Source: a virus. Taken from it: a stretch of DNA of 12,148 nucleotides. Of this stretch, positions 10,859 to 11,988 are shown one piece after another (position 1 is the first letter of the stretch; each line of letters opens with the position of its first letter). The position numbers were made by a program, and so were the translations under genes. The notes under the pieces were generated by a model that saw only the letters and a list, made by a program, of their open reading frames with translations, did no database searches and was not told the DNA's origin. The DNA is taken from IMG/VR virus record IMGVR_UViG_3300035501_000268, one strand, 5' to 3'.

Positions 10859-11545
10859 ATGGGAAGAGTTTTTTGTTGTTCCGACTTACACGGTGCAGAT
10901 GATTTATATTATGAGATTTTGAACTATATAAGACCAGACGATAAAGTTTTTTGTTTAGGCGATTGTGGAGATAGAGGTAAGCGCAGTTGGAAACTTATTA
11001 AAGAAGTTTATAACAATCCGCAATTTGTTTATCTTAAAGGAAACCACGAGGAGATGCTGGTTAAGGCTGGGCGAGAATTTATTAACTCAAATTATGTTAC
11101 AGGAAAGCATTATCAAAATCTAAAATGGAATGGCGGCGCAGATACTTTTGCGGCTTGGTCTTGCGCTTCCAGCAAAGAAGAATGGCTTGATAAATTAGAA
11201 AAACTTCCTACTTTTACCGTATATCTCAATACAGATGGTAAATTTGTTCTTTTATCTCATGCTGGTTATACTCCAACAAGAGATTGTCCTAAACCAACAG
11301 AATATAAAGCCATTTGGGATAGAGCACATTTTTTTGATACTTGGAATTTTTATGATAATGTAGTTTGCGTTCATGGTCATACTCCGGTTCAATTTTTATA
11401 TAAGGAACTCCAGTTGCCAAAAACTAATATGCCTATTACTTATTGCGATGGTCATAAAATAGATATTGATTTGGGAACATATGCGTCTCATTTAGCGGCT
11501 CTATTAAATCTGGATACTTTTGAAACGAAGGTGTTCCATTCTTGA
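10859..11545 (+). CDS. lambda-phosphatase-like (PPP-family) metallophosphoesterase, 228 aa; candidate RNA 3'-end healing phosphatase / 2',3'-cyclic phosphodiesterase
   Basis: Motifs CCSDLHG, GDCGDRG and GNHE (the canonical D-x-H...GDxxDRG...GNHE triad), then HAGYTP and VHGHTP, all collinear with lambda PPase as recalled. ATG 10859 with RBS AAGGG (the track's 10826 start would overlap the upstream ORF). Confidence 0.75.
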   Translation: MGRVFCCSDLHGADDLYYEILNYIRPDDKVFCLGDCGDRGKRSWKLIKEVYNNPQFVYLKGNHEEMLVKAGREFINSNYVTGKHYQNLKWNGGADTFAAWSCASSKEEWLDKLEKLPTFTVYLNTDGKFVLLSHAGYTPTRDCPKPTEYKAIWDRAHFFDTWNFYDNVVCVHGHTPVQFLYKELQLPKTNMPITYCDGHKIDIDLGTYASHLAALLNLDTFETKVFHS

Positions 11546-11988
11546 GTAGAAAAATTATTACGTTTTCTGGACGATATGAGTTTTTAAGTAATTTTTATGT
11601 TGCGCCGTTTACTGAGAACGATATAACTTATCCAACTGTTGAGCATTACTATCAAGCCGCAAAAACTTGCGACCCAAAAGAATATGTTGCGATTGCTTGC
11701 GCTCCATCTCCTGCAAAAGCCAAGAAATTAGGTAAACAATGTAAAATGCGAGAGAACTGGGAAGAAATTAAAATGAGTGTTATGGAACACGCTCTAATTC
11801 TCAAATTTCAAAATCCTAACTTGCAACAAGAGCTTTGCGCAACAGGAGACGCAATCTTAATTGAAGCAAATGTTTGGCATGATAATTTTTGGGGTGTTTG
11901 CACTTGCGCCAAATGTCAAGCAAAACAGGGAAAAAACAAACTTGGTTTTCTTTTGATGAAAGTAAGAGATAAATATTTGAATTTATAA
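11542..11988 (+). CDS. NADAR-domain protein (YbiA / DUF1768 family), 148 aa; candidate ADP-ribosyl-guanine hydrolase (anti-DarT counter-defence) or N-glycosidase
   Basis: Motif FSGRYEFLSNFYVAPF...ITYPTVEHYYQAAK is the hallmark NADAR N-terminal signature. TTG start overlaps the upstream TGA (cTTGAgt), suggesting translational coupling. Confidence 0.7.
   Translation: MSRKIITFSGRYEFLSNFYVAPFTENDITYPTVEHYYQAAKTCDPKEYVAIACAPSPAKAKKLGKQCKMRENWEEIKMSVMEHALILKFQNPNLQQELCATGDAILIEANVWHDNFWGVCTCAKCQAKQGKNKLGFLLMKVRDKYLNL

Follow-up and report, generated by a model that had tools for sequence, protein, structure and literature searches.

What would a phage use a NADAR domain protein for, and on which ADP-ribosylated substrate would it act? 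The question is raised by a gene at 11542-11988 (+) of a 12,148-nt stretch of DNA, IMG/VR virus record IMGVR_UViG_3300035501_000268, which is the sequence analysed here (the window) and which ends 160 bp past this gene. NADARs hydrolyse the guanine-ADP-ribose (G-ADPr) made by DarT1 (PMC11543638), and in vitro G-ADPr on either DNA or RNA is a substrate of all four subfamilies tested (PMC11125620, PMC11833690); YbiA-type enzymes remove cytosine-ADP-ribose (C-ADPr) as well (PMC12945103). The phage NADARs AdfN-T4, AdfN-Bas32 and AdfN-Bas60 neutralise DarTG1, from which the authors conclude that NADARs have been co-opted by phages several times, and AdfN-Bas32 neutralises DarT1 and restores the plaquing of three phages (PMC11825919). 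YbiA and T4 gp30.3 are active in vitro and do not on their own rescue DarT1 toxicity (PMC11125620). Phage NADARs have further been described among early, RNA-repair and NAD+ salvage genes, with soluble derivatives of ADP-ribose predicted as their substrates (PMC9503650, PMC7824862). An anti-DarT1 role, activity on RNA G-ADPr and a place beside RNA-repair and NAD+ salvage genes are already published for phage NADARs. For the window protein the comparisons below incline us, with modest confidence, towards an active YbiA-type NADAR that would serve as an orphan antitoxin-like counter-defence enzyme, removing ADP-ribose from guanine, and perhaps from cytosine, of phage nucleic acid.

The gene encodes 148 amino acids, from a TTG start to a TAA TAA stop. 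The sequence-only reading of this DNA had placed the product in the NADAR/YbiA family on the strength of an N-terminal signature. Both strings that it quoted are found (FSGRYEFLSNFY, residues 8-19, and TVEHYYQAAK, residues 32-41), and the profile search that it had called for, against Pfam NADAR (PF08719, DUF1768), gave a match far above the gathering score (E=4.1e-32, 112.1 bits against 35.1) covering profile positions 9-161 of 163. The protein also matched phrog_1017 (E=3e-43) and the NCBIfam model TIGR02464 (ribofla_fusion; 98.2 bits, cutoff 73.7). The surrounding genes are clearly those of a phage, as had been supposed. The proposed translational coupling to the upstream metallophosphoesterase (MPP) gene is likewise supported by the sequence of the junction (11528-11545, +), where a Shine-Dalgarno-like AAGGTG (11528-11533) lies 8 nt 5' of the NADAR start and the TTG codon (11542-11544) overlaps the TGA stop of the MPP gene (11543-11545) in a TTGA (11542-11545). 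Past the upstream in-frame stop this TTG is the sole canonical start for the open reading frame (ORF), and the alignment of homologues begins at residue 4-5, so the start call appears sound. Because the ORF contains no in-frame TAG codon it would be untouched by the TAG recoding that a suppressor tRNA in the window makes possible, and the MPP ORF would be likewise unaffected.

An AlphaFold2 model of the protein (predicted local distance difference test, pLDDT, 97.3; predicted TM score, pTM, 0.90; alignment of 95 sequences) has a YbiA-like fold with an alpha-helical core flanked by small beta-hairpins. A Foldseek search of the PDB returned just two matches at E<1e-3, YbiA (2B3W, TM score 0.85) and the ADP-ribose-bound NADAR of Phytophthora (PnNADAR, 8BAU, TM score 0.82). 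Residues were mapped by HMMER alignment to 8BAU and assigned the roles given for PnNADAR (PMC11543638). Those that are experimentally important in NADARs are all kept: E34, K41, E108, D114 and W117 correspond to PnNADAR E43, K50, E125, D130 and W133, the residue aligned with E108 being numbered E127 in the 8BAU chain and E125 in the published scheme. W73 corresponds to W89, and K65 and K77 are conservative replacements of R79 and R93. The catalytic Glu34 (codon 11641-11643) and the phosphate-binding Lys41 (codon 11662-11664) lie inside the TVEHYYQAAK motif (11641-11664, +), are invariant in 95/95 homologues and are also kept in T4 gp30.3, aligning with E88/K95 of the E. coli C7 enzyme and E36/K43 of the T4 enzyme. 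Mutation of these Glu and Lys positions in characterised NADARs abolishes activity (PMC11543638, PMC11825919). The active-site loop E108-A-N-V-W-H-D114-N-F-W117 (11863-11892, +) supplies the YbiA-type Glu and the Asp and Trp that contact ADP-ribose. E108 is conserved in 80, D114 in 88 and W117 in 86 of the 95 homologues, with D114, W117 and G118 each present in at least 90% of them. The catalytic residues, on whose presence the earlier assignment had been made to depend, are there on the alignment, and from this we infer that the protein is an active enzyme.

The NADARs of the literature are divided into DarG1-type, YbiA-type, T4 gp30.3-type and general forms (PMC11543638, PMC12945103), which are told apart in part by the residue that they carry where PnNADAR has E125 (Asp, Glu or His) and by the N-terminal DNA-binding extension of DarG1 (PMC11543638). 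By sequence the window protein is a YbiA-type, core-only NADAR, with E108 as the marker Glu and a TIGR02464 score above the cutoff, and is neither DarG1-type nor T4 gp30.3-type. The DarG1 NADARs of E. coli C7 and Geobacter/Trichlorobacter lovleyi have the same fold, guanine de-ADP-ribosylation chemistry and Glu/Lys pair, but they adjoin a DarT1 gene, carry a basic N-terminal beta1-beta2-alpha1 extension that binds single-stranded DNA and have Asp as the third catalytic residue. In the window protein the domain begins at about residue 5 of 148, Glu takes the place of Asp and the neighbour is an MPP. AdfN-T4 (gp30.3; PF08010, Phage_30_3) is similarly an orphan phage NADAR that keeps the catalytic Glu/Lys pair, and its anti-DarT1 role is validated; it differs in having His for the subfamily Glu, in lacking the WxDxxWG loop in the alignment and in needing other T-even factors. 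The PF08010 model scored 16.5 bits against the window protein (cutoff 36), and blastp to gp30.3 gave E=0.003 over 28 aa. Family searches found no ADP-ribosyltransferase (ART) or DarT-like gene among the ORFs of the window, in which 160 bp are visible downstream of NADAR, and within the window the gene is, like those of the AdfN proteins, an orphan phage NADAR without an adjacent cognate DarT/ART gene. NADAR domains are found in host defence as well, and two models of that side touch the protein: the PADLOC candidate-system component PDC-M42C matches it with 62.7 bits, and NCBIfam NF053876, a 'DS32_2 NADAR family anti-phage protein', matches it weakly (57.6 bits, cutoff 240).

The closest characterised homologue is AdfN-Bas32 (bas32_0066 of the T5-like Escherichia phage IrisVonRoten), with 41% identity over 143 residues (111 bits, E=6e-37). 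Both proteins are orphan, phage-encoded, single-domain and core-only, of about 149 aa and with the same E/K/E/D/W active-site set, and both genes lie in early or auxiliary regions close to nucleotide-metabolism genes. They differ in their surroundings, those of AdfN-Bas32 being RNase H, thymidylate synthase and ribonucleotide reductase genes, without an MPP or an RNA ligase, and in their phages, the one enterobacterial in host and the other from a low-GC, probably TAG-recoding lineage related to huge phages. E. coli YbiA is the best structural match (rmsd, the root mean square deviation, 2.1 Å; 37% identity in the Foldseek alignment), and by sequence it is nearly as close as AdfN-Bas32 (39% identity, 87 bits). 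It also passes TIGR02464 and shares the Glu that defines the subfamily; its gene is chromosomal and belongs, with dinG, rhlE and ybiB, to an operon under LexA control, and the protein has no Cys. Of the other validated proteins AdfN-T4 is dissimilar; for the phi92-like AdfN-Bas60, the first 50 kb of phage phi92 yielded no NADAR. In a neighbour-joining tree of 105 leaves, rooted on gp30.3 and without bootstrap, the window protein forms a tight clade with the NADARs of the loci L001, L002, P0006 and P0008, and joins the Bas32-like protein (most recent common ancestor covering 75/105 leaves) before E. coli YbiA (97/105). A 100% identical protein match (P0001) lies on a Logan contig of 922 bp. With tblastn this type of NADAR was found in 538 phage records, every one at <60% identity, and a megablast search of 50,697 phage records with the full window gave no match, so the source phage has no close relative among those records.

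With this homology, and given that all tested subfamilies hydrolyse G-ADPr, the earlier label of candidate guanine-ADPr hydrolase and anti-DarT protein is a reasonable one. In the mechanism that we propose the ADP-ribose moiety would be bound through K41, K65, W73, K77, D114 and W117, with E34 and E108 placed around the distal ribose, and the bond between ribose C1'' and the nucleobase nitrogen would be cleaved, the protein acting as an N-glycohydrolase. The substrate would most likely be ADP-ribosyl-guanine, possibly ADP-ribosyl-cytosine, on phage nucleic acid, the modification having been placed by a host ADP-ribosyltransferase of the DarT1 or pierisin type. Its AdfN-like erasure would allow replication or expression to continue. 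The enzyme would be made from a short early or auxiliary transcription unit, in fixed stoichiometry with the MPP. A role in counter-defence is suggested further by the neighbours, since they include a gp5.9-like RecBCD inhibitor and an RNA-repair set. Several findings weigh on the other side. YbiA, nearly as similar as AdfN-Bas32, does not rescue cells from DarT1, and since the window protein is likewise YbiA-type and core-only, activity against DarT1 in vivo cannot be assumed (PMC11125620). The protein is without the basic N-terminal extension through which DarG1-type NADARs bind DNA (PMC11543638), and none of the PADLOC DarG models matched it. The NADAR genes of the closest relatives lie among NAD+ salvage and RNA-repair genes, without recognisable anti-DNA-modification neighbours, and the NCBIfam name is that of a riboflavin-intermediate N-glycosidase. 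Were the counter-defence assignment correct, AdfN-type counter-defence would reach beyond coliphages into a divergent, low-GC, probably TAG-recoding lineage related to huge phages, and phages of that ecosystem too would be under selection by base ADP-ribosylation. The gains are modest overall and open no long-standing question: a functional annotation with good support in place of the 'riboflavin N-glycosidase' or 'hypothetical protein' that pipelines would assign, a documented NADAR-MPP gene pair, and a defined subfamily feature, a putative zinc site by the catalytic loop, that could influence the choice of substrate.

This putative structural zinc site (11878-11916, +) would be formed by H113 (11878-11880), C120 (11899-11901), C122 (11905-11907) and C125 (11914-11916). 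The CxCxxC of the three cysteines (C120-x-C122-x-x-C125) comes with an insertion of 6 residues, absent from AdfN-Bas32 and YbiA, directly after the WxDxxWG loop, and is modelled with a local pLDDT of 93-96; AdfN-Bas32, which lacks the insertion, has Gly at the position of H113. Among 171 unique homologues position 113 is His (50) or Cys (1) in all 51 sequences with CxCxxC and in 12/120 of the rest (Fisher p=2e-30, a value that overstates independence, as the homologues are phylogenetically related), and three CxC variants carry His in place of the third Cys. A metal site would be expected to show such exchanges of one ligand for another, and we infer that the four residues probably hold a structural zinc ion beside the catalytic loop. 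The NADAR of L002 has no insertion, so the insertion does not track the phage lineage. Neither zinc nor cysteine is mentioned in the two main NADAR structural papers, a literature search for NADAR and zinc returned nothing relevant, and the H/C/C/C insertion is apparently undescribed in the literature.

The coupled partner is a lambda-phosphatase-like, calcineurin-type MPP of 239 aa (10826-11545, +) with intact DxH, GDxxDRG and GNHE motifs. It matches Pfam Metallophos (E=5e-11), the NinI-like phosphatase family phrog_246 (E=9e-32) and lambda phosphatase in the PDB (1G5B, E=1.6e-6), with weak ApaH/PrpA-like matches in NCBIfam. Its start is overlapped by a small ORF of 51 aa (10693-10848, +) that gave no family match and would head the putative unit. 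Upstream of it a consensus scan placed a strong terminator-like hairpin with a T-run (10612-10650, +), overlapped by a promoter-like TTGATT-17-TATAAT with an extended -10 (10639-10667, +), both as pattern matches. Over the window the scan gave 5 terminator-like sites, with 0.8 expected, and a further promoter-like site overlapping the NADAR stop. From this arrangement the 51-aa ORF, MPP and NADAR probably form a short transcription unit of their own, apart from that of the RNA ligase. A link of the MPP to the published 'phage phosphatase' that extends NARP1 was considered and rejected, that enzyme being a Macro-domain homologue of Poa1p. In the NARP3 paper NADAR receives no more than a passing mention.

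The counter-defence assignment and its alternatives all call on the same N-glycosidic chemistry. Gene context was compared over 49 viral and 80 metagenomic loci, together with the contigs of close homologues, using phmmer with labelled proteins. The closest large relative is L002, a 190-kb contig whose products are 54% (Major Vault Protein, MVP-like), 66% (nucleotidyltransferase), 41% (exonuclease), 48% (ligase) and 54% (NADAR) identical to those of the window, and whose gene order runs RlaP, Metallophos, sigma-70, DEDD, ligase, NADAR, SIR2, YqeY and then NMNAT, Thg1, PncA and Prs. The order in L001 and L063 is ligase, Nuc_deoxyrib_tr, NADAR, Band_7, Metallophos, AAA_33 kinase, Metallophos_2 and PIN-PhoH. 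In L058 and L059, whose NADARs are 48-52% identical, NADAR is embedded in a complete series of NAD+ salvage genes (nicotinamidase, Prs-like, NAMPT-like, NadR-like kinase and NMNAT), with RNA ligase and Thg1 upstream and Metallophos, kinase and Metallophos_2 downstream. This context supports an auxiliary RNA-repair and NAD+ region of one phage lineage and cannot decide the substrate. It resembles the neighbourhoods drawn by Iyer, Burroughs and Aravind (PMC9503650, PMC7824862) in the RNA ligase, nucleotidyltransferase, MazG-like and calcineurin-like phosphoesterase genes, in the sirtuin (in L002) and in NADAR lying beside salvage genes of the NadV/NadM type. Those neighbourhoods are contextual predictions without the specific translational coupling of NADAR to an MPP, and their ligase is T4-like, while that of the window is Rnl5-type.

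Since the NADARs of relatives sit equally among NAD+ salvage genes, the enzyme might belong instead to a phage economy of NAD+ and ADP-ribose, in which it would cleave the N-glycosidic bonds of soluble ADP-ribose derivatives such as immune signals of the cyclic ADP-ribose (cADPR) type or side products of RNA end processing that depends on NAD+. The freed ADP-ribose would be recycled or destroyed, and the MPP might handle a phosphate or pyrophosphate of the same metabolite. This is the role that Iyer et al. predicted for phage NADARs (PMC9503650), and we regard it as the foremost of the alternatives, though an improbable one. It agrees with L058 and L059, where NADAR comes directly after NAD synthase in the salvage run and is followed by Metallophos, and with L002, where a CobB-like SIR2 NAD-dependent deacylase (11316-12068, +; Pfam 178 bits, NF001752 280 bits, cutoff 221) lies 0.9 kb 3' of NADAR, with NMNAT, Thg1, PncA and Prs-like genes within 10 kb. 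NADAR is also paired with NAMPT and NadE in L022 and in Phass-1 (L052), and an MPP gene is found within 6.2 kb of NADAR in 5/5 of the closest loci. SIR2 and NAD+ genes like those of L002 may follow just past the end of the window, which itself holds no NAD+ salvage gene up to its end 160 bp past NADAR. Against this, NAD+ linkage is missing in the majority of 64 loci for which 6 kb or more of flanking sequence is available, and in LR756501, a 735-kb phage with the best NADAR match in the annotated collection (50%), where only the MVP-like gene is common nearby. Across the 64 loci an MPP was found in 14 and a ligase in 5, several of these being near-duplicate contigs, and in a linkage test of RNA ligase, SIR2, NAD+ genes and MPP only the last was enriched (11/28 against 3/36, inflated by the near-duplicate contigs). 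Action on a soluble ADP-ribose signal has been shown for no NADAR so far, and the accessory phosphatase characterised for NARP1 has a Macro domain and is neither an MPP nor a NADAR.

The second alternative, which the sequence-only reading had also raised, is that the protein acts on ADP-ribosylated RNA or tRNA, as the base-repair step of a phage RNA-repair module. Its partners would be the phosphoesterase for 3'-end healing and three further genes of the window: an RlaP-like (RNA-ligase-associated Pol-beta) nucleotidyltransferase (5315-5872, +; phrog_388 E=2e-12, Pfam RlaP weak, 66% identical to the L002 homologue), a DEDD (RNase T-type) 3'-5' exonuclease (7962-8774, +; Pfam RNase_T E=1.4e-11) directly upstream of the ligase and syntenic in L002 and L063, and an ATP-dependent RNA ligase of the Rnl5/DRB0094 type with an N-terminal OB domain (8776-10053, +; Pfam RNA_ligase, PHA02142 OB). 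The ligase matches phrog_968 (E=2e-63), TIGR02306 (52 bits) and the Naegleria RNA ligase 5cot. MPPs of the lambda-phosphatase type can reportedly heal 2',3'-cyclic phosphate RNA ends, as in the Clostridium thermocellum Pnkp/lambda phosphatase work of Shuman's laboratory. In the window, in L001/L063, in L002 and in L058 the distance between NADAR and an RNA ligase gene is 1.9-6.8 kb; L059 has a ligase at its edge, and relatives further show Thg1, as well as the AAA_33 kinase with Metallophos_2, in the vicinity. All NADAR subfamilies remove G-ADPr from RNA in vitro (PMC11833690), and ScARP modifies tRNA (PMC12945103). We nevertheless hold this alternative to be somewhat less probable again. The link to the ligase is one of proximity only; two small ORFs and the terminator- and promoter-like pair intervene, and the ligase and MPP-NADAR apparently belong to separate transcription units. 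Family searches found no polynucleotide kinase in the window. No phage-defence system that ADP-ribosylates guanine in RNA is known; CmdT modifies adenine at N6 (PMC12945103), and reversal by a NADAR is unreported. A general linkage of NADAR and RNA ligase was rejected, being confined to the nearest relatives and absent in LR756501.

Quite unlikely, and below both, is a further scheme in which the H/C/C/C 'zinc-knuckle' NADARs would form a functionally distinct subfamily, rather than AdfN-type DNA de-ADP-ribosylases. In the lineage of the window the enzyme and its coupled lambda-phosphatase-like partner would make a two-step module for the repair of ADP-ribosylated RNA or tRNA, or for the removal of an NAD-derived adduct, either soluble or on nucleic acid, within a counter-defence region in which huge TAG-recoding phages would combine RNA repair with the reconstitution of NAD+; such a subfamily would be undescribed so far. 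Least credible of all is a housekeeping or damage-control role of the YbiA kind, without any part in host conflict, in which the N-glycosidase would have intermediates of the riboflavin pathway or similar small ribosylated metabolites as its substrates: the TIGR02464 match, the identity to YbiA, the YbiA-type Glu108 and the annotation of several phage homologues as riboflavin or GTP cyclohydrolase II proteins fit it, but those annotations are carried over from the name of a fusion domain, no riboflavin biosynthesis gene was found in the window or in the related loci examined (L001, L002, L058 and L059), YbiA-type enzymes hydrolyse G-ADPr and C-ADPr too, and the closely related AdfN-Bas32 has a demonstrated anti-defence phenotype.

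On the same strand the genes of this part of the window follow the order gp5.9-like, RlaP-like, two small membrane proteins, DEDD exonuclease, RNA ligase, two small ORFs, MPP and NADAR; no KptA, 2H or Macro genes were found in the window. The first of them encodes a T7 gp5.9-like RecBCD inhibitor of 75 aa (5091-5318, +; PF25708 34.9 bits, cutoff 24.5), a member of a bona fide anti-defence family, which lies 6 kb 5' of NADAR and whose stop overlaps the start of the RlaP-like gene. In relatives three conserved genes, Metallophos, an AAA_33 P-loop kinase and Metallophos_2, are found 3' of NADAR (L001 3931-5977, L058 9048-11315, L059 9703-12034) and look like an end-healing polynucleotide kinase/phosphatase that has been split up; of these the window carries the first phosphoesterase but no kinase.

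Further upstream is an ORF of 796 aa (2601-4991, +) encoding an MVP-like protein (Pfam MVP_shoulder E=1.5e-17, Vault_3 E=1e-7). Its relatives in the annotated phage collection are confined to 735-kb and 462-kb 'huge phage' genomes, at 38-40% identity, and MVP-like genes are found at 16490-18997 in L002, 17368-19605 in LR756501 and 20967-23363 in LR756500. The distance between the MVP-like gene and NADAR is 3.7-9 kb in the window, L002, L120 and LR756501. Human gut phage MVPs were reported in a 2023 preprint (10.1101/2023.11.10.566534).

The window also carries an amber-suppressor tRNA with anticodon CTA (787-860, +; Rfam tRNA 50.7 bits). Two homing-endonuclease ORFs are intact only with TAG as a sense codon: a GIY-YIG ORF (6127-6792, +) with 4 in-frame TAGs, whose 35-bit Pfam match spans two of them and which occupies a gap otherwise without ORFs, and an extended HNH ORF (1100-1708, +) with 3. 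TAG is the terminal stop in none of the other 15 genes. Together these features suggest a code-15-like recoding of TAG in the phage of the window, of the kind known from Lak and further huge gut phages. A group I intron (1694-1892, +; Rfam RF00028 58.9 bits, gathering score 50, full-length model) is adjacent to, or overlaps, an HNH endonuclease ORF (1370-1612, just upstream). A tRNA-Gly(TCC) (2396-2472, +; ARAGORN, Rfam 32.4 bits) is found between a 99-aa ORF and the MVP-like gene. A pair of neighbouring ORFs, each about 110 aa long (6990-7325 and 7325-7645, +), joined by an ATGA-type stop/start overlap and neither with a family match, encodes in both cases two hydrophobic helices and a C-terminal segment ending ...I(L/Y)T(I/V)...RE..., and the two may be tandem paralogues.

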